Part shown: piece after piece, positions 3,051 to 57,647 of the stretch
How positions within the stretch are numbered: the stretch's first letter is position 1
Layout: the number at the start of each line of letters is the position of its first letter
Assembly: GCF_030684315.1 (NCBI RefSeq)
Contig: NC_081373.1
Location: 28,745,989-28,809,988, forward strand
DNA length: 64,000 bases
Source of the DNA: Stegostoma tigrinum
Taxonomy: Eukaryota
Reading direction: 5' to 3'
The notes under the pieces: model-generated
Database searches by the model: none
Seen by the model: only the letters and a program-made list of their open reading frames with translations
What the model was told of the DNA's origin: nothing
Translations under genes and position numbers: made by a program

Positions 3051-3136
3051 AGTTCTGATGAAAGGTCACGCACCTGAAATGGTAACTGTTTCTTTCTCCA
3101 CAGACGCTGCCAAGCCTGCTGAGCCCTTCCAGTATT
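3051..3136 (+). mobile_element. Short PLE-derived repeat with minimal hammerhead motif (degenerate stem III)
   Basis: AGTT-CTGATGA-A-AGGT(CACGC)ACCT-GAAA-TGGT-AACT has stem I AGTT/AACT and stem II AGGT/ACCT. It is followed by the tail CTCCACAGACGCTGCC..CCTGCTGAG shared with other copies. Confidence 0.7.
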
Positions 3137-3358
3137 AGAACTTAGAACTTAGACTCCATATAGTGTAGAAGCAGGCCCTTCAGCCCAACTAGTCCACACT
3201 GACTCTCACAGCATTCCACCCAGACCCGGAAGAATAACCACTGGCTCTTTGGGTGAGGAGGTGACCTCATTGCACAACCATCATTGTTACCTTTGGGGAG
3301 AGAAGAACTGAAAACTAAATTCTCGGATGAAGTTATCAGAAATTTACACCAGCATCTT

Positions 3359-3383
3359 TGTGTGTGTGTGTGTGTGCGTGTGT
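3359..3383. repeat. (TG)n microsatellite
   Basis: TG run with one CG interruption, read directly. Confidence 0.95.
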
Positions 3384-3922
3384 CAGTTTCATTTTTCTTT
3401 TGGTTAAACAATGGTCACTGATATATTCACTTGGCAAACATCTGGAAGGAGTTACTGAGTGGACAGCGTGAATAAATTGATTTAGTGTCAATGGATAATC
3501 ATGAACCCAGCAGGGCCTCAGTGTCCGCTGTTCGTATTCACTTATCTTGCTCACCATTTTATGGCTCGAACCCATCCATCAGCCAGTTTCTCGCCACCAA
3601 AATTCAGCAAAATAAAAGCACCATTAAAGGCAGCAATAAACGAACAGGAAATGACAATTCTGAGCGACAGCTCGATCGAGGAGACAATAACCGTGACATC
3701 TCATAGGGCATGTTTGAAACATAGGAAATAGGAAGAGGAGTAGGCCATTTGGCTCTTCATCATACCGTATACAGTCAAGAGAAATTTGGCGCATTAGACT
3801 AAATACGGATGACAGTGCTGGCACTTGAAGTTCCCCAAATTGTTTTTTTTTGTAATTTGTACTCATTTCATGCATAAGATAAAATCAACTAACTAAGATG
3901 CAACCTGATGCAGGGAATTGTA

Positions 3923-3936
3923 GCGCCATCAACTGG
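3923..3936 (-). promoter_or_regulatory. Candidate CTCF site
   Basis: The minus strand reads CCAGTTGATGGCGC, one mismatch from the CCASYAGRKGGCRS core. It lies at the left edge of the CpG-retaining domain. Confidence 0.35.
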
Positions 3937-5620
3937 TGTCGGTGCGCGGTGTATATCTTTTCAGAAGTGTTGAGGAACCCAGGGCTGTTCTCGTCTTTTC
4001 GCTGCGAATTCTAAAAACAGAAATCACTTTTCTTCCCTACTCTGGCAGTCTAGTGTTTGGTGGAATTCAGGTTCACAGACACTGATGAAGTTTCGAATGG
4101 ATTGTGGGCATTTGTTGAGGGCGGTGAACTAATTGATTAGAATGTGGGCGAATTTAATTGAAAGAAACATGTTGACCGATTGTTGCCGTGTTGTTTCTTT
4201 TCTCTACGCCCTGTGCCTTGAAGAATTCGAGGCAAAATAGACTACAAGAATACCAATTTCCATAATTGTCAGAATAATGTTGACACAGGCTTCATTCAGC
4301 AGTAGGAACTGTGCTTATCATTTCGATAATGCTGGATAATTACTCAGTTTGGCAATGAAGATTTCTGAGAAAGGAGTAAGATCAGGGGCCACGGGTAAAA
4401 TGTTTTACTGTCATTTCTCGGCTTAATAAACAGACGCAGGGTTAAAAAGTAAAGATAACAGCGATGCTTTTTTTAAGCCACGCCGGTTACAGCCTTTTCT
4501 CCCCCAACACTTAATGTGAGACAACGAACAAATACTTATTATTGATTTTAATATTAAACAGGCAAATTTCAAAAAGTAATAACGCGCTGCCTGTGCTTAG
4601 CATTTAAATATGAATAGCTGAAGAGAATCTGCAGTTCTATAATTAAATTGAGTAAATGTTCTATTTAACTTTAGTTAAATATTTTATCCTTTTTTAAATT
4701 ATGCGCTTTATGCCATAAATCATATGCATCTGTGTTGTATGAATTCATCTGGACCTCCTAATTTCAATGGAACATGTCTGGACTAAAACAACATTGAGGT
4801 CTTTTTGCCCAGGATTGTACTTAATTGGAGCCAGCCCTTATAATATTGAATGGAAATCCGCAGTTTCTAGCAACTAACGAAATTCTGTTAACGTTATGCA
4901 TTAGAGAGGACGGTTTTGCATTGCTCCCCACCACAATAATGATTTCAGAGTCACACGCACTTACTCAGCCAGCTCTATACTGCACGTTTTTGGACATCTG
5001 AATTTATGCTGTAAAGTCGGGTTCATACACTTGCAGTTTTAATAGAATCCGAAATTCACTGCTTTCCAAGTGGTATTTTTCCCCCTCGAAATCCTTTTAA
5101 AGATTAATCAATAAGGGTCCTTGGCATCAGGTCAATGGGCACAGGAATAACATTTTGATTTACAGAATTGGGGCCTGGCGGGGTCCGGTTAGATTTCTGA
5201 TTAAGAGAAAGCTAGCAAGTAAGATATTAATAGCTTGTATTAAATGTTTGGTGATACCCTGCGTAACTGTTGCCTTTGTTTTAGGCAAACACATCGGATA
5301 GATCGAGCGGTAGATGCACATGCTGTTGTATATAGAAACACTGCATTACTCTATTTTAGTCAATGTCTTCCTTGAACATTTTCGTAACATGCCTTTCCTC
5401 GCCTTGTTAATCAGGAACATGCACTTCAAGAACTTTTTAAAAAAAACGAACGTCAATCGGTCAAACTATCGTGTCCAAGTGTAACCGCAGAGGGAGAAAA
5501 ATAACAGTCCCAATATGAAATGTTGGTTCGCTTCTGGGCTGATTCTACTGCAAATCGAGCCTGAAATCAAACGCACTAACATTGTTGGTGCAAAAAATGT
5601 GGCAATCATTATCACAATGT

Positions 5621-5716
5621 CTGAGGAAAGATCACTGGAACTGAAAGGTTAACTCTGCTTTCTCTGCCAGACGCTGCCAGACCTGCAGAGTTTCTCTGGC
5701 AATTTCTGTTTTTGTC
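5621..5716 (+). mobile_element. Short PLE-derived repeat, degenerate hammerhead motif
   Basis: CTGAGGA-A-AG..CT-GAAA-GGTT-AACT, then ...CAGACGCTGCCAGACCTGCAGAG, homologous to the copies at 3051 and 51438. Confidence 0.6.
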
Positions 5717-8700
5717 ACAACGCCTGCGTCCGTTTACTGCCATATTGAGTGGAGCGATCTGTTGGGGTCCCAACACTGAATGAATAACTCACGCTATCTC
5801 TGTAACTAAATCTGAATTATATTCTCTCCGGCCTAAACCAGGTCTTAACAATGAACGACGACTCCAATATTAGATGCCAATGAGCCACTGAACGTTCGTT
5901 TGGATAAATTATTTAGAACAGAGGTGAAGTTAGCATTTTCTCTGTTACGCATTCCCCAACCTTATCATGATTCAGAGCTTTCACTTGGAGCATTCATCAT
6001 GACCGAGCGCGATAATACAATAATATTTAATTATTCACACAACCTCGAAATTGTTTTGATCGGACATTGCCTTTTTGCCAATGAAGGAATTATGGCATTG
6101 ATACTGATGGCATTCCTGAAGTGCTCTAATTATAGTGATGAATATTGCAGCACGGAATTATTCGCATTTAACTTTGCATTTGCCGACACGTTATTGTTAC
6201 TGTCTATGTCATTCCAGTTCTGCCTTTTCTTCCAAGACTCTGATCTACTTTGGCGTTCGGGTGTTTTTTTTAATGTTTAACTTACCAGGCAATCCAGAAG
6301 AAATTAATGTTTGTGTTACTGATGTTTTCATGCAACACTGTGCAAAGGATTTAACAACAATACAATGTTTAAAATGTTAAATAGCCTGGGTAAAGTACTG
6401 GAACTCCACCGTCACAATTATCGAAGAACGACGATTGGTTTGGCAATATATTGTTGTGCTCCTGATATCAGCCTGATCTGCACAGTAAATATTCAATTTG
6501 GTAATGTTCAGACCTCGAGACTAAATCATAATAACTTCTACATTTTAATACAATGTGTAAGACAGAAAATCAAATGGCGTACACAATTTAAACCCAGCTG
6601 CTGATGCGTCTAGCAGCTGAGTAAATGTAGGATGGAACCAGTTTGTACCAAATCAGAGACAACTATAAATGCCTACGGCTCACATTGGATTGCTGTGTAC
6701 TTCTAACCGTCTGTTTTTGCCTCAGGTCTGCAATGCTTACTCCCTATTTCTGACACCAAGTCTAGTTTGAGTTCTAACAACCTATTCAAGCAATCATAAA
6801 AAGGGCGAGTAAACCAAGGATTTCCCTCTCTCTCTCTCTCTCTCTCCACTGGGTTCTTAATCTGGACATGTGTAAACAAACAATTCTGCGTATTTACAAA
6901 TATGTTTGCTTACAACGTTTCTTTTTAAAAGCCTTCTGAACAAATTAGGCCTTCATTGATCACCCCGACACGCCCCAAGCCCCCCGCCACCACCACACGT
7001 ACACATATACACCCCAAAATCAAACCAGTTGATTTGAAATGCATCTAAAATTATATTTCTTTCGCGGATTGTTGATCGATTCATTCACGTTTAAATTTGT
7101 GTCAGCTTTTTATGGGGTCCCTTCTAGCTTTCATGCCCATTATGTTGAAAGCAGCTAAAGGGTGCTGAACATAAAATTTTGAAGTGCCTTCTTTTTTTTG
7201 TAAGTAATTTCCTGACACTGCGTAAAAACAATCCGAAGTAGCTAACATTTCATCAGAGGAATTATAAAGAAAGGTTTCTGATTTCACTCCCTCTTTTCTT
7301 CCTGAGCGTTTGTAATGACTCTCAAGTTTAAAAATACAGGTCTCATTTTCGTTCATTGTTACTATTGAGCTGGAAAAGGATTCCAATTTCCATCGGGATC
7401 GCTTTGAATCAATATCGTCAGTTCACATATATGTTGTCAAGAATCTATTAGAATCATGTGCTCCATGTAAATCAGCCCCGAATTCAGTGATTACCGGCTC
7501 GTCTCGAGTCTTGGAATTAACCCGAACGTTACATTAAGAACTAGATTTATGTAAGGAAAACAAGTCCAATACAAGCAACGATCCCTAGGAAATGGCAAAT
7601 CCAGCACCTTTCAGTTTCATAAACACTGCTTTCTCAGATTTTCACAAACTTTGCTTTTGGTTTTCAGATACGATTCTGAAAGTCTTCTTTCGGCTAATGC
7701 CAGACATGCTTTTATTCTTATAGCTCCCAACTCCAACAAAACTGAAAGAATGTACACCAGGTTTTGCTGTTCCAAATAGAATAGCAAAATACGTGTGGTT
7801 GACCTGCAAAGTACTGGTGATAAGGATCATATTTATCAACAGGGGGTGCTGTACAAAAAACGTTCAGCACACAACCCCTGTGTTAATTGTGAATCACTCA
7901 AGCCCTCCATCTGTCGTATTTCTTCGCCAAAAGTGACGGGAACTTGTTCCTGAACACAACCTTCGTGAATGGCTTCATCAACCAGATGAGGAAAGTTAAG
8001 GGTTTAACATTCATGACATAACTTTAAACTCCGAGAATTAATGGTGTATTTCCCCACTAAACTGCTCTGTTTCCTGCCACAAGAAGTAACTTATCCCCTA
8101 GTCATGAAAGAACGTATGCCAAACGGCAGAGTTTCGCCGAGATAACCCTGCTCACACGACACCGACGAAAAATAGAATTCCGAAGTGTGGTTTCAAACTC
8201 TCACTGCTCTTTCTGCAGCAGACAAAAGGTTAATTGCCTTTGGCTTCCTTCTGTTTTTGTCTAGTGACATGATTGTCATCTTTTAAAGAAGAAACTGAAA
8301 AACAAGAGGGAAAAAAGAATCATTCTCTAAAACGATATAAGCCTTCCACATTCAGGGACAACACCTAAGTATCAAGCAGCTCGTTTATCTCTTGTTTCAA
8401 GACTTCATATTACAAAGGAGCTCCCTGATGATAAGTATCTGCTGTCAGAGAGATTGACTGCCCTGATGGACATGTTCGCGGTTTCTGATGTCTTCTCCTC
8501 AGGGGTTGTTTTAAGACCTCTAAAGGTGTACCTCTCTGATCTGTCTTCTCATAACCTGAAGGGAAATGATTAGCAGCAAAAAAGATCAGTGTGTAACACA
8601 ATAGAGGGACGAAGATGATCTCCAAGCAGCATCAGAGAGAACAATGCATTCCTTTAGTGAAAGTCATGTAATTAATAAGCTGGCCGTGTGAAAAGAAACA

Positions 8701-11700
8701 CATCGTCCAAATTAGATGTCCAATAGTTTGTTCTAACCACTGATTGCCGCATTCAAAACGAAGCTGAATCAAAGTCTGTTAATGATGCTTTTAAGCATGA
8801 CTGTCTAATTTATGGATTGAGTACTGCTGCAATATTTGTATCATATTTAATAATAAATATCCAGTTCATTCACTTGAATGATGTTCACGATTTTATACCC
8901 AAGCCCCAAACGTTTAGCCGAGTTCTAGAAAAGTCACTGTAAATTTTGTCTAACTTTTTGGTTTGCAGTACACTGATGATTGCAGAATTCTGGTCTATAC
9001 GTGAATTTATTGTGGCTTCGTCGACAACACTTATGAACCTTATTTTCAAATAGAAGACTTTGGTGTAATTTGGGAATCTCTGTATTATCCTTATATTTGA
9101 ATAGTGCTTTGCTAAATGAGGAAGGGAACGAATTCATCTAAGTAATATGTGGTGGAAGAAAAGTACAGAGACTTCATCAATTGAATCATTAAAATATATT
9201 CAGGAGTCCGGGTGATTCAAAGTATCATAAATGAACATTTACCTGTCTCGTGAGAGCAGCCTTTTATCTCAATCACCAGTCTTTCATAATATATGCATGT
9301 ATCTTCCAAGGTACTACTTACATTGCTGTTAATCTGTTTACCACTGCCAAACTGACAAAGAGAAGCATAATGTTGTATTTATGGCCTTTGAAAGCGTAAA
9401 ACAGCTATTATATACTCTACTTGAGCCATCTGATATCACAGCACTGTTCCAAACATCTGATAAGATAATTCACTAATAAGATATTTAAAGTATTAAAGAC
9501 ATGATGAACGATGAGGACATGGAATCTAAGAAAGCGAGGACTAGATAGTGCAGGTGAATATGATAAGAATAAGATTTTTAAAAATCTTTAGCATCTCAAA
9601 TGTATTAAAGTTGCTGGACCATTTGCATTAAAACTTTAAACTAGACTCGCTTGTTGGTCTGCAAAAACTGTAAATTGTTATAGAAATTATGGCATTCGTT
9701 ACACATAAGGGCATTCCGATTTTAGTTTCATTATCACTGGTTATTTCACATAATTGTATCAATTAGCCTGACCCTATCACACATTGATTGTTGTTAATGT
9801 AATTAATGGTGTTGCATCCTATCTACTTCCTATCAACATGAAAATTAATTCAACTATAATATAAAGAGACGATAGAAAAGTTCCCAAAGGATAACAAAGG
9901 CTAAATGTGTTACTTGGCTGATTCTAAGGAAAATCTGCGCAAGTCACCTGCATGTGCCTACACAAACTGAGATTCATGTTTTGATGTCAAACCTTTCTGG
10001 GAGTGGTGCTAGTGGCCGAATTTTGAATGAGGAACTGCGGTGTTCAAAAGTTATAATCGACTAATTCTATTTCTAATCTAGGAAGGCATCGATCAGAAGA
10101 AACTCCAAACGTATTCACATTTCATTTAAAAGTCCTACTTCGAACATTATTTGGATCATTCTTCCACAACTTCATCCATTGCATGATCCTTTTGAAGGCG
10201 CCTATTTTAGATTTGTCTGAAAGAGACAATATACATTGCTTTCCATTTGAGTAACCTATGGATATTACACATATGTATACGATCATTCAGCAGGTACCTT
10301 TAAACAACCAACTGGTTTGCCACCCATCTTGCAGCAACACCCCCCCCCCCCCCGCCGCATAGAATCTTCCAAACAATCGCGTTCAGTCTGCTTGACTATA
10401 TTTCAGTTCTCAGGCAAATATGCAATATTGTAGAACAAAGGAGCTTTATAGCGTTGGCGTAATGAGGTTCGAACTTTAGAAGTAAGTCCTGTCCTTTTTA
10501 CAATGACTATAAACACAACAGTCCGTCTGTGCGTGCAGGTGATTCTCTCTTTGAAAGACAAATTAATTGTAAATGCAAATCATGAATTATGCTGCAGCCC
10601 GTGGGGTATTGCATTGTAGTTGTAATTATCTTTGCAGCAGCTACCTTTACTGCCCTGTATAATCGTTAACATGTATTTTGATATATAAAGTGGTGCACCC
10701 ATGATTCATTTTCCCAACAGATTTGAGTAAATGTTTTCTGGGTATCATGGCGTGTAGTATTGCTTAATTTGCGTCTATCAGAATGGACAATGATATAATT
10801 GTAACAGGTGTTGAAAGATAAAACGTTGTCGAATTGTAGATGCCACTAACTAAATGCAAGAGTCAACGGCAAATACCTGGTACACTAGTCTGGCCGTTTG
10901 CAGTAAGATACAGCCTAGTAATCTGTGGAATGGCACTAAGGTATGCACATTATCACTCAACCAAATGAAACGAAATGTAATATTGAGTAAACAGCAAAGG
11001 CTGTAGGTTGCAAATTATATGCGGAGAATGATGATGGGTATTTCAATTTCGACACTCACCCATCCCAATGTGTTGGCATGTTCGTCAGTGCTATAAATTA
11101 TCTGAATTATAGATAAAAGCTGGGCTGTAGCAATCATTTTCTATTATATACTCTCGGGCCAAACTGCAAATTGACGACATGTATCTGCTTACAGTTCTGG
11201 AACATTATGTAAATATGTAAGAATACAAACAGTGCTGTATTCACGGTTAACGTAAAGGAAACGCATGTGTAATATGAAAATGTAGATAAACTAAATGAAA
11301 TCCTTAATTAAAGCTTTCAAAGCAAATACAATCGAATTCCCATACAAAACCCTGTTATGTCGTTAGCCAAACCGAGTTGGCGCGCTGTGTAGAATGAAAG
11401 GTCTGTCGTGAGATTTGCAGCTGTATAAATTAGAATAATAATAATCAAAACAGGCAGTCCTCAGTTGACATTCACCAAAACTAAATGTTATATCTAAGTG
11501 GTAGCTCAATATAAAATTGTTCCCGTTTACTGACAGGATATGTCACCTTCTTCAACTCTTCTACTAAATTAACGTTGTAACGTTTTGTTTTGTTTCCATT
11601 GGGTTATAAGCTTTGCCAGAAATAATGCTTGAAAAAATATTACAATCCTTTCTGCTTGTATTTTAGGAAGTAAATGTGCGCAAGCAAGTCGAGATATTTG

Positions 11701-12440: not shown

Positions 12441-12787
12441 GGCGAGCTCTTATAGCCTTAAGCGAAGCGCAAAGTATAGGGAGGTGGACTCATTACATGC
12501 CATTCTTTTTTTTCCTTCGATAATCCTATTTGCCATTGTGCGTGCCCAATCGCCGTATACTTTCTGCATTTAACTTGTATGACATTTTTATTTCATCATT
12601 ATCATCTGGCGCCAGATTGAGGCTGAATGCCTCCGACTCTGTTGCAAATTGGTGTGGAGTTCCACTGTCCCCACATGCAAAAGTTTGGTGCGTTTTTCTG
12701 AACTCCCGGGATTCTGAACAACGCAGTCCGCTTTCTTGCCCGAGCCTCCGCACGGTGCCTGCAGTGACTGCTCGGAGTCAAACAGCC

Positions 12788-13082
12788 ATGCCCGAGACAG
12801 CAGCGCAGGAGAATCCCATCCAGCCTAAAGAGTCCTCCTTCTCCATCAAAAACCTGCTGAACTGTGATCGAAAGCCGTCGAAGCCCAAGACTTTGCTGTC
12901 GGCAGTGAAAGGGGTGGTCGAGGGCACGACTTTCTCCTTACCTCACTGCAGGGAGCCCGGCTTCCCCAGGTTTGAACTCCCAGCGCAGAGATTTGCTTTG
13001 CCGGCGCACTATCTGGAGAGGTCCCCCGCCTGGTGGTACCCCTGCACACTCACATCAGGGGTGCATCTCCCGCGGACGGAAG
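12788..13082 (+). CDS. HMX3: Homeobox protein HMX3 (Nkx5-1), coding exon 1
   Basis: GCC-ATG start gives [24 protein letters not shown] (eh1/TN motif)...[17 protein letters not shown]...PRTE. It ends at a phase-1 donor G|GTAAGT. Confidence 0.95.
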
Positions 13083-13156
13083 GTAAGTGATCTTTAAGCA
13101 CGGTCTTCTTTCTGATTGTCCTGTCTTCTTATAGCTGTGGCCTGCAGCATGTCTAA

Positions 13157-13786
<630 letters not shown>

Positions 13787-23467: not shown

Positions 23468-23510
23468 ATTGGCTGCAGCAACTCAAACCTACATGCAAAT
23501 CAGCCAACGC
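23468..23510 (+). promoter_or_regulatory. HMX2 proximal promoter elements (reverse CCAAT, octamer)
   Basis: ATTGG near 23468 and a perfect octamer ATGCAAAT at 23493-23500, about 190 bp upstream of the ATG. Confidence 0.4.
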
Positions 23511-23678
23511 CACTGCCTCGGCAGCAGATCAATACAGGTTTACGGGACGCTGAGAATGCATTCAGCTAGTGCATGCTCAGGGAAAACGACTGCAGAACAA
23601 AGCCACAACAATTTACGCCGCCTAACACGCCTGCAAGCGATTGTAAGTAAGTTTCTTTCCTTTTTTTATGAACACAGA

Positions 23679-23943
23679 ATGAGCAACAAAGACGACATCA
23701 CAAAGTGTTCCCCTGCCCCGATCTCCAGCTTTACGATACAGTCCATACTTGGGACATCGTCGGAGGAAGAACGCACAGGTTGCAATGACAATGCAAAGGT
23801 AAATACCAGGAAGCGCTGTTTGTCCGACTCCTCGGACGAAGAGTTAATCGAGGAAGGATACAAAGACCTCGCCTGCTTCTGTTCCGACGCTGGCCCCGCA
23901 GAGCCCTGTCGCAGACACCAGACTATCAGCTACACTTGTGTGA
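23679..23943 (+). CDS. HMX2: Homeobox protein HMX2 (Nkx5-2), coding exon 1
   Basis: MSNKDDITKCSPAPISSFTIQSILG (eh1 motif)...RKRCLSDSSDEE. The phase-1 donor A|GTAAGT at 23944 matches the exon 2 frame. Confidence 0.9.
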
Positions 23944-24990
23944 GTAAGTGAAGCAAGAATCTTTATTTTTACGGTCCATTATTGCCTTCAATTTCTTTCA
24001 GTGAATAGTTTAGGAAAAGATAATTTTATATGAGGCACAATGCCTTTGCCCTGTAAATGAGATTTTTTTTTGTGGCGCTCTCCTAACATAGTTTCATAGA
24101 GCGTATACACGTATCTTACACTATTATCGCTAACGTCCAAGCAGGCACCAATATTATCGACCACGTCAACAATGACTCTTATTAAAAAGTGAAAAATTCT
24201 GGAAGGTCTGGGTAGATCAGATAACATCTACCGACTGCTTACATTTGGGATGGGGTTTAGTCGGTGAAATTGCATTGTGCAAACTTAAAGGGTTTTCATA
24301 TTTTACTGCGGACAGAACATTCACACAATTTGCTTTCGACATCTAAGTTACACAAAATAAAATGGTCATTCAGTAAACAGAATACAATTAATAGTTTACT
24401 TTGTGACTGGAACCCAGGTAGCACACGACAACAGCAATTCTGTTTCTTCCATCATTCACAACATATTGACTCTGGATAATAACATATATACGCGACTATT
24501 TATTGAAATCAAATTCAGCACGATATATTTCAATAGAAATTAGGCAATGAGCTTAGTGGTCATATTTAGCTAAGCGTTTACAACGCCAGACTAACTGAGC
24601 CAAGCAGCGGCATTTTGCAAGATTATGACAGTAAATACAGGTGGGACGCGTTTGGGGTTCTTTGCTAATTAATTGTACAGATAGCCAGAGAGTTAGAAAA
24701 TGCATTTTCTCATCATGAAGTGTCAAATAAAGCTCATTCTTTTTTGACAGCTTGTATAATTTTAACTATACTTAAAGGGGGTTTCTTACGTGAAGTTTCC
24801 AGGCAGTGACGCATTTATGCACTCCAGAACGAAAGAGAATTTAAAACGAGGGAGGGTTTATGTATCAGCGCGTTATTCTGGCCGCATGGGCAATACGAGT
24901 GAATTTTCTTTTCTTCTAGAGGTACAGTAATAGCGAAAAGACGAGGAATACAAAGAACATTTCTGAGACATACTTTTTTTTTATTTTTAG

Positions 24991-25532
24991 GTAATACTAA
25001 AGGAGTTGGCACCGCTGGGCAGGAAAGTGCGGAGAGAAGGCAGCAGCAGTACCTGTCGCAAGATGGTCAGGTTTACAAAGAAGAAAAAGAGAAAAATTGC
25101 ATGCAGACATCAACAGACAGACAACGAGAGGGAGACAGACAAGGGAATCCGACCAAGAAGAAGACTCGCACGGTTTTCTCTCGCAGCCAAGTTTACCAAC
25201 TAGAATCCACCTTCGACATGAAGCGTTACCTTAGCAGCTCGGAAAGAGCCTGCCTCGCCACCAGCCTCCAGCTCACAGAGACGCAGGTCAAAACCTGGTT
25301 CCAGAACCGCAGGAACAAGTGGAAGCGACAGCTCTCAGCAGAACTCGAAGCAGCCAACATGGCCCACGCGTCAGCGCAGACTCTGGTCGGAATGCCACTC
25401 GTTTTCAGAGACAATTCTCTTTTGAGGGTTCCAGTCCCCAGATCAATTGCATTCCCAGCTCCTTTGTACTACCCAGGCAACAATCTTACAGCTCTTCCCT
25501 TCTACAATCTCTACAACAAAATCGAATACTGA
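24991..25532 (+). CDS. HMX2: Homeobox protein HMX2, coding exon 2 (homeodomain)
   Basis: A poly-T tract and TAG| acceptor precede [85 protein letters not shown]...YNKIEY*. The spliced CDS is 807 nt, 268 aa. Confidence 0.97.
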
Positions 25533-29784: not shown

Positions 29785-29945
29785 GCTACTGGAGTGTGCA
29801 GTTCCTGCAAAAGGTAGATATGGATAGGGAGGGAAATCTCTCCTTGGTGGGGTCAAGTTGCAGGTGGTGGAAGTGGCAGATGATGTGTTGGATGTGGAAG
29901 TTGGTGACTTGGTGAGACCAAGTGCAGATTTGGTGACTGATTGGC
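29785..29945 (-). mobile_element. Penelope-like element fragment (RT-to-GIY-YIG linker), inverted relative to neighbour
   Basis: The minus strand reads TNFHIQHIICHFHHLQLDPTKERFPSLSISTFCRN, resembling the PLE linker I..II.RHF..LQ.DP....FP..P...F.R. Confidence 0.55.
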
Positions 29946-29989
29946 GGAGCATCTGTGCTGTATATGCTATAACCAGCAACACCTTCTGA

Positions 29990-30503
29990 TTGCCAACCAT
30001 TTTTAACTCTTTCCTCTCTCCTCCTCCTCTCTTCCCCCCCCCCCCCCCCCCCCCAAATTTTGATGCATGTCCATACTGGATCGCCTCCGGTGCCACAATG
30101 AAGCTGTGCACCAACTGGAGGAACGACACCTCATTTTGCCTCAGCTGCCTGCAGCTTGATGGCCTGAACGTAGAATTGATCAGTTTCAAAATCTCCCCAC
30201 CCTGGCCTCATTCCACGTCCAACCCTCCCTCTCTTCCCCACCTCCTTGACCTGACACAACCTGTCCATCTTCTTTCCCACCAAACACCCCAACCTTCCCA
30301 CTGACCAATCCCCACTACCCCTGACCTGCATCCACCTATCACCATCCCTTCTATTTATTCTGCAACTCTCTTCTCCCTCCGCAGTCATGACGAAGGGTCC
30401 CGACCAGAAATGTCGACTTTCCAACTCCTCTGATGTTGCTTGGCTGGCTGTGTTCCTCCAAGCTATTGACTCTGACTCCAGCATCTGCAGTTCTTGCTAT
30501 CTG
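29990..30503 (+). mobile_element. Diverged Penelope-like element 3' fragment with degenerate hammerhead (30383-30418)
   Basis: Contains ANHFNS...LEERHLILPQLPAA/CLQLDGLNVELISFK (GIY-YIG C-terminus) and a pyrimidine-rich tract. It continues AGTC-ATGACGA-A-GGGTC..GACC-AGAAA-TGTC-GACT and the CCAGCATCTGCAGTT tail. Confidence 0.75.
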
Positions 30504-32728: not shown

Positions 32729-33505
32729 ACACCTCCACTCGGTTCGCACCCGGTGTGGCTACCTCTACATTGGGGAAACCAAGCGGAGGCTTGGGGACTG
32801 CTTTGCAGAACACCTCTGCTCGGTTCGCAATAAACACCTGCACCTCCCAGTCGCAAACCATTTCCACTCCCCCTCCCATTCTTTAGATGACATGTCCATC
32901 GTGGGCCTCCTGCAGTGCCACAATGATGCCACCCGAAGGTTGCAGGAACAGCAACTCTTATTCCGCTTGGGAACCCTGCAGCCCAATGGTATCAATGTGG
33001 ACTTCAACAACTTCAAAATCTCCCCTTCCCCCACCGCATCCCAAAACCAGCCCAGTTCGTCCCCTCCCCCCACCGCACCACACAACCAGCCCAGCTCTTC
33101 CCCTCTACCCACTGCATCCCAAAACCAGTCCAACCTGTCTCTGCTTCCCTAACCTGTCCTTCCTCTCACCCATCCCTTCCTCCCACCCCAAGCCGCACCT
33201 CCATATCCTACCTACTAACCTCATCCCACCTCCTTGACCTGTCCGTCTTCCCTGGACTGACCTATCCCCTCCCTACCTACCCACCTATACTCTCCTCTCC
33301 ACCTATCTTCTTTTCTCTCCATCTTCGGTCCACCTCCCCCTCTCTCCCTGTTTATTCCAGAACCCTCACCCCATCCCCCTCTCTGATGGGTCTAGGCCCA
33401 AAACGTCAGCTTTTGTGCTCCTGAGATGCTGCTTGGCCTGCTGTGTTCATCCAGCCTCACATTTTATTATCTTGGATTGTCCAGCATCTGCAGTTCCCAT
33501 TATCA
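32729..33505 (+). mobile_element. 5'-truncated Penelope-like element (GIY-YIG C-half + pseudo-LTR tail, broken hammerhead)
   Basis: Encodes CG.LYIGETKRRLGDCFAEHL..VANHFHSPSHSLDDMSIVGLLQCHNDATRRLQEQQLLFRLGTLQPNGINVDF and is nearly collinear with 56990-57745. Hammerhead remnant CTGATGGGTCTAGGCCCAAAACGTC at 33383; possible TSD TTAAGAC (32722 / 33506). Confidence 0.9.
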
Positions 33506-37457: not shown

Positions 37458-37537
37458 ATGAAGGGTCTAGGCCTGAAACGTCAGCTTTTGTGCTCCTGAG
37501 ATGCTGCTTTCATCCAGCTTCACCCTTTGTTATCTAT
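37458..37537 (+). mobile_element. 80-bp PLE tail insertion beginning at the hammerhead core
   Basis: ATGAAGGGTCTAGGCCTGAAACGTCAGCTTTTGTGCTCCTGAGATGCTGC, flanked by AAAAGTACCT (37448) and AAAAGTGCCT (37538). Confidence 0.8.
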
Positions 37538-46512: not shown

Positions 46513-47688
46513 TGACCTGTGTTGTGCCATAAGGATTGGTGTTGAATCCCTTGTTTTTCATCATTTTATATAAATGATTTGAATGTGAATGTAGGGTATC
46601 TTGTTAGTAGCTTTGCAGGTGACACCAAAACTGGTGGTGTAGTGGACAGTGAAGAAGACTATCGCAGAGTATGATGGACCTTGATCAGATGGGCTGATGA
46701 GCAGAGGAGTGGCAAACAAAGTTTAATTTGGATAAATGAGGTGTTTGCATTTTGGTAAGGCAAATCAGGGCAGGACTTATAAACTTAATGGTAGTGCCCT
46801 GGGGAGTGTTGCTGAAAAAAGGGACCTAGCGATGCCAGTAGACAGGGTGGTGAAGAAGACATTTAGTAGCAGAGATAGTAGGAACTGCAGGTGCTGGTGA
46901 ATCTGAGATAACAAGGTGTGGAGCTGGATGAACACTGCAGGCCAAGCAGCATCAGAGGAGCAGGAAGGCTGATGTTTTGGGCCTGAAGGGTCTAGGCCCG
47001 AAATGTCAGCCTTCCTGCACCGCTGCTGCTTGGCCTGCTGTGTTCATCCAGCTCTACACCTAAGACTTTCAGTATGCTTGCCTTCATTGGTCAGTGCGTT
47101 GAGTTTGGGAGTTGGGATGTCAAGTTGCACCTGTACAGGACATTGGTTAGATTACTTTTAGAATACTGCTTTCAGCTCTGGTCTCCCTGCTAGAAGAAAG
47201 ATGTTGTGAAACATGAAAGGGTTCAGAAAAGATCTACAATGATGTTGGGGGTAGGAAGGCTTGAGCTATAGGGAGAGTTTGAATAGGCAGGGTTTCCCCC
47301 CCCACTGGAGTGTTAGATGTTGAGGGGTGACCTTAGAAGTTCATAAAATTATGAGGAGCATGGATAGCGTGAATCGTCAAGGCCTTTTCCCAAAGTAGGG
47401 GAGTCCAAAACTAGAGGGCATAGTTTTGAGGTGAGAAGGGAAAGCTTTAAAAGGAACCTGAGGGGCAACTTTTTCATAGAAGGCGGTGCATGTGTGGGAT
47501 GAACTGCCAGAGGAAGTGGTAGAAATGAATACAATTACAACATTTAATTGGCACTGAGATGGTATATGAATTGGAAGGCTTTAGAGGGATAGAGGCAAAA
47601 TGCTAGTAAATAGAACTAATCAGTTTAGAGTATCTGGTTGGCGTGGTCAGATTGGACCAAAGGGCCCATTTCCATGATGTAAAATTTA
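46513..47688 (+). mobile_element. CR1-type LINE 3' portion (same family as 36300-37403)
   Basis: VP*GLVLNP (VPQGSVLGP) at about 46524 and FAGDTK at about 46612. It is collinear with the 36.3-37.4 kb copy and interrupted at 46869-47061. Confidence 0.85.
46869..47061. mobile_element. Palindromic PLE-tail mini-element nested in CR1
   Basis: Arms at about 46915-46984 and 46994-47060 are reverse complements. The centre is GAAGGGTCTAGGCCCGAAATGTC (hammerhead remnant). Flanks are AAGACATTTAGTA (46856) and AAGACTTTCAGTA (47062). Confidence 0.85.
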
Positions 47689-48959: not shown

Positions 48960-49165
48960 AGGTAGACAGCCGGGAGGCTGGAAGAACACAGCAAGCCAGG
49001 CAGCATCTGGAGGAAAGGAGTAGTCAATGTTTTTGGATTGGAAGAAGGGATAATACCCAAAACATTGACTTCTTTCCTCCAGATACTGCCTGGCTTGCTG
49101 CGTTCTTCCAGCCTCCTGTTTGTCTACCTTGGATTCCAGCATCTGCAGTTTATTTTGTCTCTAAG
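48960..49165. mobile_element. Palindromic PLE-tail mini-element
   Basis: Arms 48960-49035 and 49058-49129 are reverse complementary. The centre is GAAGA-A-GGG(ATAATA)CCC-AAAA-CATT-GACT. TSD CAGTCTTGCCATTAG (48945) / CAGTTTTGCCATTAG (49166). Confidence 0.88.
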
Positions 49166-49525
49166 CAGTTTTGCCATTAGCCTGAATCATAATGATTGGA
49201 ATGCAAGTGTATTTGACGCTATATAATTTTCAAAACCAATCCAAAAGATTCTTGGAAAATGCACCAACTGTGTAGAGCTAGTACTGTCACTTCAGATTTT
49301 AATGAGGTGTGAAATGTTTAGTTATATACTGGATGTTTATAACATGACATGCTAAATGCAGATTGCCTTAAGATGTCTGCTGCCATTATCAAATAAAGAG
49401 TGGGCTGTCCACTTAATTGCTATTTTCATTCCTAGATAAATTAGGATTGTGTTGCGTCGGTATTTTCTTATTTCTCTTTAATATGAGCAAGTATAATATA
49501 AAGCGTTACTTGTTTTTCGCTTTAG

Positions 49526-49684
49526 GTGTACACTCTTTCTGTTTCTGGAGATCGCCTAATTGTGGGTACTGCTAGTCGCCGTGTACTGGTGTGGGACCTG
49601 AGGAATATGGGATACGTACAGCAAAGGAGAGAGTCCAGCCTGAAGTATCAGACACGCTGCATTAGAGCATTTCCAAATAAACAG
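49526..49684 (+). CDS. BUB3: BUB3 coding exon 4
   Basis: tttag|[53 protein letters not shown]|GTATT; 159 nt. Confidence 0.97.
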
Positions 49685-49789
49685 GTATTTAATGTATTGT
49701 CCATGTTTAACAATAGTCATATGACTTATGCATCTGACTTTATAATTGGCTCAATTGTGTTTTAATTAATTTGTAAAGTTAGTTACTAT

Positions 49790-49982
49790 AGCCCTCTGAG
49801 ACCATAGGGTAGGCCTCTGCTTCAAGAGACAACTGGTGATGGTTTAACCTGAGAGTCACCACACGTCAGGTCAGGGAAGAAATTGTGAAGGCTTTCATAG
49901 CCTCAGCCAGCTCAGGAACTGTACCCATGCTGCTGGCATCACTCTGCATCACAAACCAGTGGTCCAGTGAAGTGAGCTATTG
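49790..49982 (-). mobile_element. Degenerate tRNA-derived SINE
   Basis: The minus strand starts TAGCTCAC..CTGG (A-box-like) and contains GGGTACAGTTCC (B-box-like) at tRNA-like spacing, followed by a non-tRNA body. Confidence 0.45.
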
Positions 49983-51437: not shown

Positions 51438-51570
51438 AGTTCTGAGGAACGGTCACGAGGTCTGAAACATTAACTGTTTTTTTCTTCACAGATGCTGCCA
51501 GACCTGCTGAGTCTTCCCAGCAACTTTGTTTTTGTTCCTGATTTACAGCATCCGTAATTCTTTCAGTTTT
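51438..51570 (+). mobile_element. Short PLE-derived repeat with hammerhead motif
   Basis: AGTT-CTGAGGA-A-(CGGTCACGAGGTCT)-GAAA-CATT-AACT plus the CACAGATGCTGCCAGACCTGCTGAG tail. TAATGC occurs on both sides (51431 / 51571). Confidence 0.75.
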
Positions 51571-52539
51571 TAATGCCTTATTAAAGGCTTGGTCAAAGGC
51601 AGGCAGCAGTGCTTACTAGAGTATTCATGAAGTATCCATCAGCTTCTCTCTTTACCAATACAAAGTACAAGTGCTTTGACTTTTCTTAAAATAAATAATT
51701 GATGTGGTCCTTGGATATGTAATGTAGGGTGTGAAGGTTTATGGATTTCCTCATGCTCTAATAGGATGCATGAGGTAGAAGGCTCAGTTGCACATATGGC
51801 AGCCAGCCTGATGGCAACAATTTTTCATGTTGACTTTTTCTCTGCAGCTACTTCTACAATTCATTCTGTAAAAACTGAATTATTTTCTGATTATGGTGAT
51901 ACAAAAGATGGACTTGTAATTAAACAGCTTTGTTAAACTACTTGCAAATTGCTACAAGGTAGCTATAGGTGCCCACTGCGATATGGTTAAATACCTGAAA
52001 GCACTGACGAGTGTTAATATCTACTAGATATTGAATGATGATTTTGACTTGACATCATGATGAGTTCCTGCTCAGTGAAAACCAATGTTTGAGTAGTATC
52101 CAGAAGATTCATTCTACTTGTGTCTTTTGTGACATTAAAATATCTCCAGTAATGTTGAAAGGGAAGCAGACTATAACAGGATATGAAGGTCACTGGGTTC
52201 AAGCAAAAATGCATGTGGAAAGGTATTATTGACGAGCAAGACGTAGATGGTGATTCTATTTAGCCTATTAATTAAGTACTTTGTGTGTTCATGTCAATTC
52301 TACCTGCTCTCATTTAGCTGATACCAGTAATTTCTAATATTAGTGTATTCGCAATATGTTTTGAGCAGTGTTAAATGAGAGCTAAATTATGTATTGATTT
52401 CTCCTGTCTTGTATCTAATGAAGAAGTATTAGAATATTGTGAGGATCGACAGCTGTTGATTTATGCGGAAAGGTTTTCATTTAACTAGTTTTGGTAACTT
52501 CTGGAGTTTTCATGGGATCAAATCTTTTATGCTTTTTAG

Positions 52540-52717
52540 GGTTATGTTCTGAGTTCAATTGAAGGACGTGTTGCAGTGGAGTACCTTGATCCAAACCCAG
52601 AAGTGCAAAAGAAAAAATATGCTTTTAAATGTCACCGACTAAAAGAAAACAACCTTGAACAAATTTATCCTGTCAATGCCATTTCCTTTCACAGCGTTCA
52701 TAACACGTTTGCTACAG
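52540..52717 (+). CDS. BUB3: BUB3 coding exon 5
   Basis: tttag|GYVLSSIEGRVAVEYLDPNPEVQKKKYAFKCHRLKENNLEQIYPVNAISFHSVHNTFAT+G|GTACG; 178 nt, absent from the ORF track. Confidence 0.96.
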
Positions 52718-54509
52718 GTACGATGTAATATAAAACATGAATTAACTAATTTTCTGAAATAGTCATATTTTTATCTAATTACATTTTCTGTTATTTCAAA
52801 TTAATGTTTGTAGTTATTAACGAGTTTGCATGTATAGAAACTTGAATTCGAGTAGGCTGAATCAATTTGAACATTTTCGTCAGATATGTCTTTGTTCATA
52901 CAAACATTTTTGATTTTTAAGTTTGAAATTCTTCATCTGTTGGATGAAATCAAGACTGTCACTTCAGTTCATACTGTTTTGGATTTTTATCTGCTTCATG
53001 CTTGTTAACACCAAATTGGTTTGATTTCTATAATCAAATTAAAGCTACTTTTTATACGCTATATTTCTCCTGTCCTTGGCACGGTTGACTACTACTTGGA
53101 TTCTTCAGCTGGTTACCCACATCCACCAATACCTGTCATTTTTTTTAATTTTGAAAATGTTTTAAAGCGGAGCTGACTCACCACTGTGCATTCTGTTGTT
53201 ACTTTCCCATACCAGCTGCTGGGCTTCAAAAACCTGTCAGTGAAATGCCAGAGGATATAGAGGCTGTTTTATACTGCTTTTGTTTTTAGTTTTGTGGGTT
53301 AAGTAGCACTGAAAACAGGAAAAGTCTGTCTGCTTTTCGCACCTTGGTAACCGGACAGCAGTTCAATCATCACACCAGATTATTTTATGGTTTATAGTTG
53401 TAAGTAATCACATCCTGACCATGTGAAATTTTACAAGTTTTCAGAAAATATTCATCGCTATTGTGTGATTTGGAATCACTTTAACCATGTGACGGTTTTA
53501 AAAATAGATTCTAACTTCCCAAACCCGCCCTCCAACTGCAAGTCAAGGTCAGAATACTCTCTCCATTTGCCTTTGGGAGTACGGCTTGAACAGAATTAAA
53601 GCTCAACACCATCGAAGTCAAAGCACTTACTTGATCAACACTCCATCCACCAACTTGAACATTCACTCACTCCGCCACCGATAGTGACAGGAGCATGCAT
53701 TTTAAGCATCTGTTGCAGCAATTCTCTAAGGCTCGTTCAGCAGCACCTATGACTTCTACACCCTAGAAAGACAAGTGCAGCACATAAAAGGATACCTATG
53801 TATGTTGCTCAAAGCAGTACAGTATCCAGACTTGTCATCAGTCCATTTCCTTCACTGTCACCCATTGAATTCCTTTCCCAGTGACCCTGCAAGTGGTCTA
53901 CAGCATTGAGTTGGAGATGGACAACAAATGACTTGCAATAATGTCCACATTCCATTAAAGAATAAAGTAATTTCTTTGCAGATAATTTAATCAAAGCTAT
54001 TTAGAAAACATGAACTTTAAAATTGATGTGAATTTTTAATGTCGATAGAACAAGTTAATGAAATGTTTGTGATTAAAAACCGATAAAAGATTTTGGTTAA
54101 TGGACTGGAGCCCTGGAGTGACACTTTTTTCTGAAGCTTGGTGGTGTATTAAAGTTAAACTTACTATTGTTTAAATTTCCAAAGTAACATTTTCAGGGAA
54201 AGTGCATCTCCTGATTGATTGATCAGTGTTTCTTATTAAGCTATGCTTTTGATTCTGCTGAAAGCTTTACAAAAAGGTCCTAATTTTCTTTAGTGTTCAG
54301 GAATATTCTGGCATTTTTGGCCAGATAATTTTAGCTAATTTTTAAATGTGGCTGAATTTTGAATATGTGTAACCTCATGTAAAAACAATTTTTGTTTATC
54401 TGCTAGAAGCAGAAGTGATCTTGCAAACAGTAGCTGTGGGGAAAGAAATGCTCCTTTGACAACCCAAGCTAAAAATCTTTGCAAGAACCCTAACCATAGT
54501 TTTACCAAT

Positions 54510-54700
54510 GAGCTTGTTGACTTGCTTGCCGAGCTGGCTGGTTATCGTACAGACATTTCGTCACCATGCTAGGTAACATCATCATTGTGGCCTCCAATGA
54601 AGCGCTGTTGTTCTACTTTGCTTGCTATTTATATGATCCAGTCTGTTTAAGTTTGGTTGTCATTTCTGGGTCTGTATATGGGGACTAATTCCACATATTT
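54510..54700 (-). mobile_element. Fragment of a different PLE-like family with a long-stem-II hammerhead motif (54550-54587)
   Basis: The minus strand reads CA-ATGATGA-T-GTTACC(TAGCAT)GGTGAC-GAAA-TGTC-TG, with a 6-bp stem II and the core C3 mutated. Confidence 0.55.
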
Positions 54701-56124
54701 GATTATATTCATTATTCTTAAACCAGTGGTGACTCCTTGCTGTTACCATATTTTAACACCTCCCTCTAAATGGCAACATTGCCTCCCATAACTGTAGATT
54801 CTTTCTATGTTTTTGAGCACTTTGAATATATTCTCCCTTGCTTTGCCTCTGTTGTTATTTGTAGAACCTTTTAGCTCTTTATTCTTTCAAAACGCTTACT
54901 CAGAGCCTCCTCTTTGCTCCGAGCCATCTTTTTAAGGTATTTTTAGTTTAACGCTGTTTCTTTCAGTTGATATCCTTTCACGTGGCCATCAAGACACTTT
55001 ATAAATAAAGATAACTAACATTTGAATGTGCTGTTTTGATTATTTGTATATGGATGTTGACCACGTGCTTCTGAATTATCACTAGGTGTTATGTTCACAC
55101 CTTTTGAAAAGGAAGTTGAAGGTGAAGCTGTAAGTACAGATGAGCATGTGGTTATGAAGGCAAAACTATTGGAGTCACTGATGTCATTGTGCAGACTACT
55201 AATAGAAATAAGAATGGATCATGGAAATAAGTTGATGAGAAATCTTAGAGCAGTTGAAAGGCAGAAGGAGAATGAAAAAACTGAGCCTCTTAGGTACAAG
55301 GTATAATTTTTCATGTTGCCCAGTGCTATTTGACAGGTTAGTAGAAGTTAGATTGGAGGACTTCAGAAAGAAAATATGGATAAAATATATGTTACTAGAT
55401 TTTGGAGAAAGAGATGAAGTAGACAGTAGTGGAAGTTTGCATGTTTGTTTTTGAGAGCAGTTGAAGATGCTGAGGGCTGGCTGATGAGCAACATTGCCGC
55501 TCCTTCAGAATTGCCTTTAGGTGTCTAGAAATATAAAATTGTAATCTCTTCAGAATACTCATTGAGAGCAAAATTCAGGAGAAAATCTAGGGACATTAAA
55601 ACAACTTATTTTTTCTTTCAAATATTGGAGTCGATCCAAGTGGCCGAAGGCTTTTTTAGTCAGATTGAAGATTAATCCAAATGGTTAACAGTTTGTTCCC
55701 TTACCAGTTGAAGTGGGAAGACAATTGAGGATGAGCTAGTGGTGGGAGTCCAGATTTAAAAATAGAAACTCAGCAGGTCTAACAGTATCTCTGGGGACTG
55801 AATATGAAAATAGAATTCTAGTCCTATTTAACTTAGTCTAGACCAATACATTGGGTGACTGTTGGTGTGAAAGAAGAGCTGGGATGAGATAAAGGGATAG
55901 AGCCTCTGTATTAGCAATCTAATTTCTATGAAAGGTTATATTTTGAGACACTAATATTTCTTTGGTACTGCAGTATTTGTTCAACCTTGGAGTTACTGCT
56001 AGATTGCATAAATCAAAGCAATTTTTCTGAAATCCACCCAACCCAAATGACATCTAGTACAAGATAATAAAATGTGAGGCTGGATGAACACAGCAGGCCA
56101 AGCAGTATCTCAGGAACACAAAAG

Positions 56125-56156
56125 CTGACGTTTCGGGCCTAGACCCTTCATCAGAG
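56125..56156 (-). ncRNA. Minimal type I hammerhead ribozyme motif (core intact), antisense to BUB3
   Basis: The minus strand reads CT-CTGATGA-A-GGGTCTAGGCCC-GAAACGTC-AG. Confidence 0.7.
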
Positions 56157-57615
56157 AGGGGGATGGGGAGAGGGAACTGGAATAAATAGGGAGAGAGGGG
56201 GAGGCGGACCGAAGATGGAGAGTAAAGAAGATAGGTGGAGAGTGTGTAGGTGGGGAGGTAGGGAGGGGATAGGTCGGTCCAGGGAAGACGGACAGGTCAA
56301 GGAGGTGGGATGAGGTTAGTAGGTAGCGGGGGGTGCGGCTTGGGGTGGGAGGAAGGGATGGGTGAGAGGAAGAACCGGTTAGGGAGGCAGAGACAGGTTG
56401 GACTGGTTTTGGGATGCAGTGGGTGGAGGGGAAGAGCTGGGCTGGTTGTGTGGTGCAGTGGGGGGAGGGGACGAACTGGGCTGGTTTAGGGATGCAGAAG
56501 GGGAAGGGGAGATTTTGAAACTGGTGAAGTCCACATTGATACCATATGGCTGCAGGGTTCCCAGGCGGAATATGAGTTGCTGTTCCTGCAACCTTCGGGT
56601 GGCATCATTGTGGCAGTGCAGGAGGCCCATGATGGACATGTCATCTAGAGAATGGGAGAGGGAGTGGAAATGGTTTGCGACTGGGAGGTGCAGTTGTTTG
56701 TTGCGAACTGAGCGGAGGTGTTCTGCAAAGCGGTCCCCAAGCCTCCGTTTGGTTTCCCCAATGTAGAGGAAGCCGCACCGGGTACAGTGGATGCAGTATA
56801 CCACATTGGCAGATGTGCAGGTGAACCTCTGCTTAATGTGGAATGTCCCCACACCTCCTCCCTCACCCCCATCCCAGGCACCTGTCCCCACACCTCCTCC
56901 CTCACCCCCATCCCAGGCCCCAAGATGACATTCCACATTAAGCAGAGGTTCACCTGCACATCTGCCAATGTGGTATACTGCATCCACTGTACCCGGTGCG
57001 GCTTCCTCTACATTGGGGAAACCAAGCGGAGTCTTGGGGACCGCTTTGCAGAACACCTCCCGCTCAGTTCGCAACAAACAACTGCACCTCCCAGTCGCAA
57101 ACCATTTCCACTCCCCCTCCCATTCTCTAGATGACATGTCCATCACGGGCCTCCTGCACTGCCACAATGATGCCACCCGAAGGTTGCAGGAACAGCAACT
57201 CATATTCCGCCTGGGAACCCTGCAGCCATATGGTATCAATGTGGACTTCACCAGTTTCAAAATCTCCCCTTCCCCTACTGCATCCCTAAACTAGCCCAGT
57301 TCGTCCCCTCCCCCCACTGCACCACACAACCAGCCCAGCTCTTCCCCCCCCAACCCACTGCATCCCAAAACCAGTCCAACCTGTCTTCCTAACCGGTTCT
57401 TCCTCTCACCCATCCCTTCCTCCCACCCCAAGCCGCACCCCCAGCTACCTACTAACCTCATCCCACCTCCTTGACCTGTCCGTCTTCCCTGGACCGACCT
57501 ATCCCCTCCCTACCTCCCCACCTACACTCTCTCCACCTATCTTCTTTACTCTCCATCTTCGGTCCGCCTCCCCCTCTTCCCCCTATTTATTCCAGTTCCC
57601 TCTCCCCATCCCCCT

Positions 57616-57647
57616 CTCTGATGAAGGGTCTAGGCCCGAAACGTCAG
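57616..57647 (+). ncRNA. Minimal type I hammerhead ribozyme motif (core intact), sense to BUB3
   Basis: CT-CTGATGA-A-GGGT(CTAG)GCCC-GAA-ACGT-C^AG has the conserved CUGAUGA and GAAA boxes, a palindromic ACGU in place of stem III and a GUC cleavage triplet (57643-57645). Stem I is only 2 bp. Confidence 0.7.

Follow-up and report, generated by a model that had tools for sequence, protein, structure and literature searches.

Minimal hammerhead ribozymes (min-HHR) have been known since 2014 in the pseudo-LTRs (pLTRs) of metazoan Penelope-like elements (PLEs) (Cervera and De la Pena, PMC4209133). In these min-HHR the core is of type I, a single extra base follows A9, G10.1 pairs with C11.1, loop III is absent, 15.2/16.2 is palindromic and stem I is short; many families occur per genome, mostly as solitary copies or on opposite strands. 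The motifs that we analyzed in the zebra shark Stegostoma tigrinum have all of these traits in common with them; the hammerhead class itself is already known, and the find is in this respect ordinary. One of the two supplements of that paper contains none of the cartilaginous fish terms for which it was searched. Non-LTR retrozymes, which resemble our copies in their type I hammerhead and PLE origin, have been described from one chondrichthyan genome (Li et al. 2026, 10.64898/2026.07.22.740005). Their defining trait is a series of tandem units, every one of which contains a hammerhead, whereas the copies described below are solitary or inverted.

Two groups of PLEs offer a further close comparison. 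Our elements are like Poseidon_Ac of Anolis carolinensis (Frangieh et al. 2024, PMC11167929) in a hammerhead at the pLTR/ORF junction and, on our reading, in two internal priming sites that give the tail and in uncut RNA as the main substrate, which it is in vitro for the anole element. Unlike Poseidon_Ac, our family A has a CX4CxxC linker of the Neptune/Nematis type, and the first Met of its long frame lies about 165 nt downstream of C3 and not in stem II. Its likeness to the EN+ PLEs Neptune and Nematis (Craig et al. 2021, PMC8557442) extends to an RT with DKG, a zinc-finger linker and, at the C-terminus, a GIY-YIG with CCHH, as well as to a partial tandem, an inverted 5' copy and a 30-40 bp tail.

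The features of the window, a stretch of 64,000 nucleotides of contig NC_081373.1, are as follows (signed positions in the text are counted from C3).

3050..3132, + strand: family B stub that begins at the edge of stem I (AGTT at 3051); position 3050 is G, and the core is damaged at U16.1
5620..5718, + strand: family B stub with stem II decayed
29893..30493, + strand: old family H end, a decayed GIY-YIG fragment and a hammerhead (30383-30421) with C3 changed to A
32748..33505, + strand: truncated family A end containing a GIY-YIG fragment; its hammerhead, at 33383, is broken
37458..37535, + strand: family A stub starting within the core
46870..47061, no single strand: family A/E stubs paired as a fold-back, each arm starting within the hammerhead
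48960..49150, no single strand: fold-back pair of family F stubs
51438..51536, + strand: family B stub that begins at the edge of stem I; G10.1 is mutated
54522..54587, - strand: family C/D remnant with a 6-bp stem II, an extra U and C3 changed to A at 54585
56060..57745, no single strand: head-to-head pair of 5'-truncated family A ends, each arm with a GIY-YIG fragment, pseudo-LTR and tail
56125..56156, - strand: intact minimal hammerhead of family A, C3 at 56154, predicted cut after 56127 (descriptor)
57612..57619, + strand: polypyrimidine initiator-like sequence; transcription of the family probably starts at the C at 57614, -4 from C3 (from genome-wide 5' ends)
57616..57647, + strand: intact minimal hammerhead of family A with a 2-bp stem I, C3 at 57618, predicted cut after 57645 (descriptor, 28-mer count)

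All 11 sites named in the original prediction coincide with hammerhead-type repeats, and two more partial copies are present as inverted arms ending at 46972 (-) and 49032 (-). CUGANGA, which the sites were said to share, is literally kept in only five of them, with C3 at 3055, 5621, 51442 and 57618 (+) and 56154 (-); the other six are damaged or start within the core. C3 is changed to A at 30387 and 54585 (-), the copy at 33383 has a 3-nt deletion plus G12 changed to A, and the copies at 37458, 46984 and 49041 have their first base within the core. Damage also affects U16.1, which is G in the 3055 copy, and stem II, which is mismatched in the 5621 and 51442 copies. A strict descriptor (core CUGANGA, GAAA and UH around stem II) fails 9 of the 11 and passes 57618 (+) and 56154 (-), in agreement with the claim that only the motifs at 56125 and 57616 keep a full core; the cut after GUC had been correctly placed at 57645. 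The two intact hammerheads lie on opposite strands of the head-to-head pair, which is flanked by an 11-bp direct repeat that we read as a target site duplication. No array of tandem units each with a complete hammerhead was found in the window, and a search of the window against Rfam (E<=10) gave nine matches, none of them to a hammerhead family. The miRNA matches among them were rejected as spurious, their source being the fold-back stubs, as in the family F pair.

The hammerhead motifs are not a product of chance. The original prediction had called for a genome scan, and our descriptor model gave 128 matches in 1,144,000 bases of the genome (109 stretches, the window included), against 0, 0, 1, 1 and 0 in five Markov resamplings and none in reversed sequence. 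The 28-mer of the family A motif at 57616..57647 alone has 92,176 exact copies, and extrapolation yields about 360,000 descriptor matches genome-wide, compared with about 4,000 in coelacanth and 9,000 in Xenopus tropicalis, obtained with a different descriptor (PMC4209133). The predicted single extra nucleotide and near-absent, palindromic stem III were borne out among the 128 matches: the base after A9 is A in 112 and T in 16, loop III is absent, and 15.2-16.2 reads CG in 78, CpG decay products in 45, GC in 2 and others in 3. The family majority motifs have the G10.1-C11.1 pair, with CpG decay of C11.1.

These data support that the window repeats are minimal type I hammerheads in the pseudo-LTRs of several PLE families. 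They had been predicted to be ribozyme-bearing PLE tails, and the copies at 33383, 56154 and 57618 do sit behind a GIY-YIG frame, and that at 30387 behind a decayed one. Longer copies encode an RT with YIDD and DKG motifs. In the full-length element L088, two hammerheads 3,528 nt apart, one in each pLTR, surround an RT and GIY-YIG frame, and 44 nt are retained upstream of the 5' hammerhead, suggesting that some templates start further upstream. A 456-aa family A frame (L061) contains an RT followed by a C-terminal GIY-YIG domain; its Pfam scores are both under the curated cut-offs (GIY-YIG, E 2e-4; RVT_1, E 4e-3), and it has 148 homologs at E<=1e-20, mostly with PF00078 among the matches listed. 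Family A translations contain the CX2-5CxxC linker, the CCHH and the DKG motifs when compared with PMC8557442, a Neptune/Nematis match at the level of motifs. Families C/D look Poseidon-type. In two copies of these families, an endonuclease fragment lies 340-385 nt upstream, with a motif that we take to be of the Poseidon type; the C/D copy in the window is without a coding part. At least two endonuclease types occur among hammerhead-bearing families. The nine junction copies of family B did not establish a link to a coding region, since they share only 75-207 nt upstream and one of the nine has a decayed RT/EN match. Finally, an inverted arm is present in 101 of 186 copies, and 3' ends fall preferentially at two sites about 33 nt apart, near +92 (+88..97, 60/186) and +124 (+115..130, 115/186).

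Covariation had been taken to imply past selection on the fold. Between families, stem I pairs in 28 of 32 cases versus 15.7 in shuffles, none of 20,000 shuffles reaching 28, and this pairing lies outside the descriptor requirements; the families are related, so that the test overstates significance. Stem III covariation (6/8 pairs, p 0.13) rests on one family. Pairs were counted on motif-anchored families, since MAFFT alignments put families C, D and G out of register and were not used for the count. The claim holds for stem I and for master elements; it does not extend to the window copies, for inserted copies decay without sign of selection and in the main family the core decays at the same pace as its flanks. 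Folding z-scores of seven window pieces were not significant (-0.93 to +0.94). In the minimum free energy structure of the monomer, the core is closed by pairing (-11.4 vs -3.6 kcal/mol), and that of the homodimer is likewise closed, a duplex. The shut fold and 2-bp stem I of family A, and the overlap of the motif with the inferred start site, could be accommodated by a conserved protein-binding or promoter element that resembles a hammerhead and is none. We find this scarcely credible, however, given that every catalytic position is retained by the majority in each well-sampled family, that stems I and II change in pairs, and that cleavage of similar motifs is on record for multimers (PMC4209133) or in the presence of protein (PMC11167929).

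The 5' ends of the copies probably indicate which RNA was copied. They pile up in a wall just before the core, with 35 of 186 in the 10 nt from -8 to +1, and their density falls about tenfold upstream, where 82 nt contain 12 of 186. In families that differ in stem I, the wall coincides with +1 of a sequence resembling an initiator, and 14,663 copies match the wall pattern. In addition, the base preceding the start is G in 74/100 copies of family A, 55/100 of E and 47/100 of B, compared with 31-38% expected by background; the excess is weaker in B and E (p 0.006 and 0.0005, respectively, versus a stricter background). At an internal truncation site used as control, G precedes 6 of 44 copies, or 5 of 24 without arm joins (all counted by hand, from the first 100 rows listed). 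In full-length LINE-1 insertions, an extra G at the 5' junction has been read as a copied cap and marks capping (PMC11702581). Unlike those insertions, the G-bearing copies here are the shortest ones, presumably because priming occurs within the RNA and close to its 5' end. We found neither the wall nor the G excess described in those parts of the PLE hammerhead literature that we searched. A splice acceptor was rejected as the cause of the wall, as the G excess holds with a preceding T and there is no shared upstream exon.

The wall might instead reflect, in the same elements, an RT stall or template end set by a folded or protein-bound hammerhead, the G being a non-templated base or a microhomology preference with no cap. 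Consistent with this, 5' ends are dense within the motif too (42/186 in +2..+26), and of the nine wall copies (of 25) with a target duplication of at least 9 bp, three have the G inside the duplication, as part of the target. Of the remaining six, only two have an insert ending in G and four have no G, which also counts against the cap reading; in favor of a cap, the G of copy L183 sits between target duplication and element. The lack of G excess at the internal site, the fall in density upstream and the position of the wall on an initiator across families of differing stem I argue against a stall, which we regard as unlikely. Alternatively, the stubs might be a non-autonomous element in their own right, retrozyme- or SINE-like and derived from master stubs with a genomic 5' G, which would fit the sheer number of wall copies and the tail-to-wall tandem joins seen in contigs of run X2. 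This is still less probable, because the stubs match the end of the autonomous family and have the same two 3' ends, upstream flanks of family A wall copies differ from copy to copy, 13 of 22 copies whose flanks are unrelated have the G, spread over six registers, and the window is free of tandem hammerhead arrays.

A third alternative, proposed in 2014, is that self-cleavage makes the template, cut monomers or circles being reverse transcribed, which would explain partial tandems. The two hammerheads of L088 could pair in one RNA, and this copy is longer than one unit. Furthermore, 5' ends show a modest peak at the cut site, where +28 has about twice the count of its neighbors (251 vs 105, 138 and 133), and some templates may therefore be cut. 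Yet +28 accounts for only 5 of the 186 5' ends, including two from one palindromic join, compared with 35 at the wall, and cleavage was rejected on these grounds as the main route to stubs; moreover, ribozyme mutants of the anole element still insert in vitro (PMC11167929). As a general account, self-cleavage is very improbable, but a minority of long copies can have arisen in this way.

We thus consider it probable that these are pseudo-LTR hammerheads of several PLE families, and that the short copies are dead-end reverse transcripts running from the tail to the probably capped start of uncut RNA, a cap that the preceding G likely records. In our working model, RNA polymerase II would start about 4 nt before C3, on an initiator overlapping stem I, and the element protein would nick DNA and prime within the RNA, at one of the two tail sites (+92 or +124), as has been demonstrated in vitro for the anole Poseidon. 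Where priming takes place at the 5' tail copy, the product would be a stub of 95-130 nt that reaches the cap, and the cap G may be copied or anneal to a target G; where it takes place at the 3' tail copy, the products would be longer and truncated at random. We predict that the monomeric ribozyme is shut and that cutting requires a dimer or assistance from protein; it would act at some step apart from the production of the main insertion template. More tentatively, with somewhat less than even confidence, we suggest that the initiator is fused to stem I, the stubs, which number tens of thousands in the genome, forming a fossil cap map of uncut RNA, and that the ribozyme is off during insertion and serves as a protein-gated decapping or circularizing switch and not as template maker. 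In that case the ribozyme would be the first 32 nt of the capped RNA, a cut would remove the cap, and each stub may carry a whole internal promoter.

The role of the hammerhead in PLEs is still called unclear (PMC8557442). On the order of 10^5 recent copies in this shark amount to a statistical record of which RNA got copied, and this record suggests, from genomic copies, that the copied RNA was for the most part uncut, with a cap that probably lay immediately ahead of the ribozyme. With such a record, the role of the hammerhead becomes a testable question.

The original prediction placed at least 11 minimal hammerhead motifs in the window, and a hammerhead-type repeat is indeed present at all 11 sites named. 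The accompanying claim of a shared CUGANGA stood in part: CTGANGA is literal in 5 of the 11 but altered or partial in the remaining sites, with C3 (the core reference base, from which offsets are counted) changed to A at 30387 and 54585 (-), a deletion inside the motif at 33383 and core-internal starts in the copies at 37458, 46984 and 49041. Just two copies, 57618 (+) and 56154 (-), satisfy a strict descriptor (core, a single extra base, 4 or more stem II pairs, GAAA, two bases, UH), in agreement with the statement that only the copies noted at 56125 and 57616 keep a full core. These two hammerheads bound a head-to-head insertion bordered by an 11-bp direct repeat and, since they lie on opposite strands, they cannot pair with each other in a single transcript. 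An Rfam search of the window gave no hammerhead match, and no hammerhead copy was found from 5718 to 30383. Both tandem homeobox genes listed below resemble HMX/NK5-type genes; the translation of 2-439 (-), which has no Pfam match, resembles a LINE fragment.

Features of the window (coordinates; strand; description)
56060-57745; both strands; head-to-head insertion, outer ends formed by hammerheads 57618 (+) and 56154 (-)
12524-13786; +; homeobox gene (Pfam Homeodomain, E 2e-22)
23469-25532; +; homeobox gene, in tandem with the preceding one (Pfam Homeodomain, E 2e-21)
1109-1343 and 1771-2005; n/a; 235-bp direct duplication, 98% identity
321-542/31564-31787 and 36486-37241/46565-47523; n/a; older dispersed repeats, ~70% identity

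The identification of these repeats as tails of Penelope-like elements (PLEs) was borne out, as hammerheads 33383, 56154 and 57618 sit behind a GIY-YIG frame. Another 10-kb stretch of the genome (L061) holds an open 456-aa frame in which RT (YIDD) is followed by a CX4CxxC linker and then by GIY-YIG with CCHH; its Pfam matches are weak and below cut-off, and 148 longer proteins match it at E ≤ 1e-20. A full-length, frameshifted element in L088 has the order inverted arm (an adjacent inverted copy), 44 nt of pseudo-LTR, hammerhead, DKG-bearing frame and second hammerhead, the two hammerheads being 3,528 nt apart. Among the eight hammerhead-bearing families (A to H), C and D have another kind of endonuclease 340-385 nt upstream (two copies), which we assume to be of Poseidon type. 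Family A, the main one, is of the Neptune/Nematis type, as judged from its sequence by the features listed in PMC8557442. In the L088 element, a short upstream frame begins within the hammerhead core, and a pyrimidine run with CAG at +130 to +200, just ahead of the long frame's first Met, resembles a splice acceptor, for which a matching donor was not identified. The family A frame is closed by a 39-bp tandem repeat of variable copy number (33021-33132, 56399-56510 and 57265-57378).

The descriptor matched 128 times in 1,144,000 bases from 109 stretches (108 of 10 kb out of three contigs, plus the window, a non-random sampling), versus 0, 0, 1, 1 and 0 matches in five Markov resamplings and 0 in the reversed sequence. 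Single-base core changes gave 0-5 matches each, with the exception of G12>A (20), G12 being a CpG site. The 57618 28-mer has 92,176 exact copies in the 3.2-Gb genome (control, 0) and a tail 29-mer has 115,739; extrapolation from the non-random stretches would predict ~360,000 descriptor matches genome-wide.

In the majority motifs of the eight families, the core is constant and the stems differ. The predicted covariation of stem I, whose pairing is absent from the descriptor, was recovered: 28 of 32 family-level cells pair (shuffle mean, 15.7; 0 of 20,000 shuffles equal it), a p value that is optimistic because the families are related, with F and H sampled by one copy each, G by two, and 2 of 128 matches without family. 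All 40 stem II cells are paired, as the descriptor demanded, and 6 of 8 families keep the 15.2-16.2 pair (p 0.13), where one change from CG to GC is seen. Within family A, core and tail are conserved about equally at non-CpG positions, mostly at 90-100%, and conservation goes down to 82-90% at CpG positions. This equality argues that the proposed past selection on the fold acted in master elements but not in present copies. For the family A monomer, the predicted fold joins CUGAUG to CGUCAG (-11.4 kcal/mol) and is favoured over the one with stems I and II (-3.6 kcal/mol).

The ends of family A copies were counted in 186 tail-bearing matches (192 minus 6 close to stretch edges). Two clusters of 3' ends, at +88..97 (60) and +115..130 (115), make up a two-site tail like the pattern tied to internal priming in PMC11167929. 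An adjacent inverted arm occurs in 101 of the 186; an earlier model, in PMC3846280, proposes that head-to-head arms derive from an antisense template, and it may apply here. The 5' ends pile up in a wall at -8..+1 (35), with 12 at -90..-9, 67 further upstream, 42 within the motif (+2..+26), 23 at +30..50 and 7 at +27..29, 5 of them at the predicted cut site, +28; the reference copy deviates from the family at -1, so that the peak at 0 (26 copies) merges several registers. Genome-wide, matched patterns gave 105 5' ends at +27, 251 at +28, 138 at +29 and 133 at +30, an approximately twofold excess at +28, for which flank composition and microhomology are confounders; the wall pattern is matched 14,663 times. 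Short tandem arrays with units of 42-65 bp (G000:C9:76466124-76466352, C4:118161643-118161801 and C1:149364421-149364500) start at or beside the family A predicted cut site. In L030 and at L136:6030-6120, stubs, the short copies, are joined after a piece ending at ~+200 in the frame, which suggests a third priming or template-jump site.

An extra G often precedes the wall. In a hand count of the first 100 of 1,065 family A rows, which required T at -6, the CTCT at -4 was preceded by G in 74, T in 17 and A in 9 (background G, 0.36; p 2e-14). At an internal control, +19, 44 truncations gave G 6, A 21 and T 17, the other 56 of 100 rows having been left out as double mutants or deletions. Families E (G 55, A 24, T 21; 100 of 908 rows) and B (G 47, A 34, T 19; 100 of 782 rows) also have G excesses (p 1e-4 to 6e-3), and a script count over 22 wall copies whose flanks are unrelated found G in 13, in six registers. 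Among contigs of an RNA run that may share species or sample, a single inserted G (element strand), within -4..+2, appears in 6 of 12 listed joints with inserted letters, out of 177 such joints. Target duplications of at least 9 bp accompany 9 of 25 wall copies examined; in these the insert ends in G (2), G lies within the target (3) or there is no G (4), which speaks against a straightforward cap reading. Annealing of a cap-derived C to a target G would account for the middle three. At L183:1480-1680 (-), a family A stub is inserted exactly at the predicted cut site of a family B hammerhead; it has one extra G and a target duplication of 10 bp.

In family A, -4 is a C within a pyrimidine run, a region that we liken to a TCT initiator. 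In junction copies of families B, E and H, -4 is the A of a match to YYANWYY, the initiator consensus in PMC4422821. We propose that transcription starts ~4 nt upstream of C3 and that priming occurs at the tail; stubs would arise by run-off at the RNA cap, longer copies would begin from the 3' tail, and read-through RNA, template jumps or circles may produce the partial tandems. In the literature, minimal hammerheads show no cleavage as monomers and weak cleavage as multimers (PMC4209133), and the anole hammerhead requires protein and can be dispensed with when insertion is assayed in vitro (PMC11167929). The start-at-hammerhead arrangement is not universal, since D. virilis has both its start site and an intron upstream of the motif (PMC2377424 and PMC4209133).

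The hammerhead motif and its PLE host class have been in print since 2014. A search, mostly of listings, of the literature outside subscription papers and Repbase/Dfam found no description of these families or of the cap signature; further related papers are PMC6155905, PMC6765202, 10.64898/2026.07.22.740005 and PMC11702581. What our analysis adds is a testable model of the RNA start position and of copying from uncut RNA.
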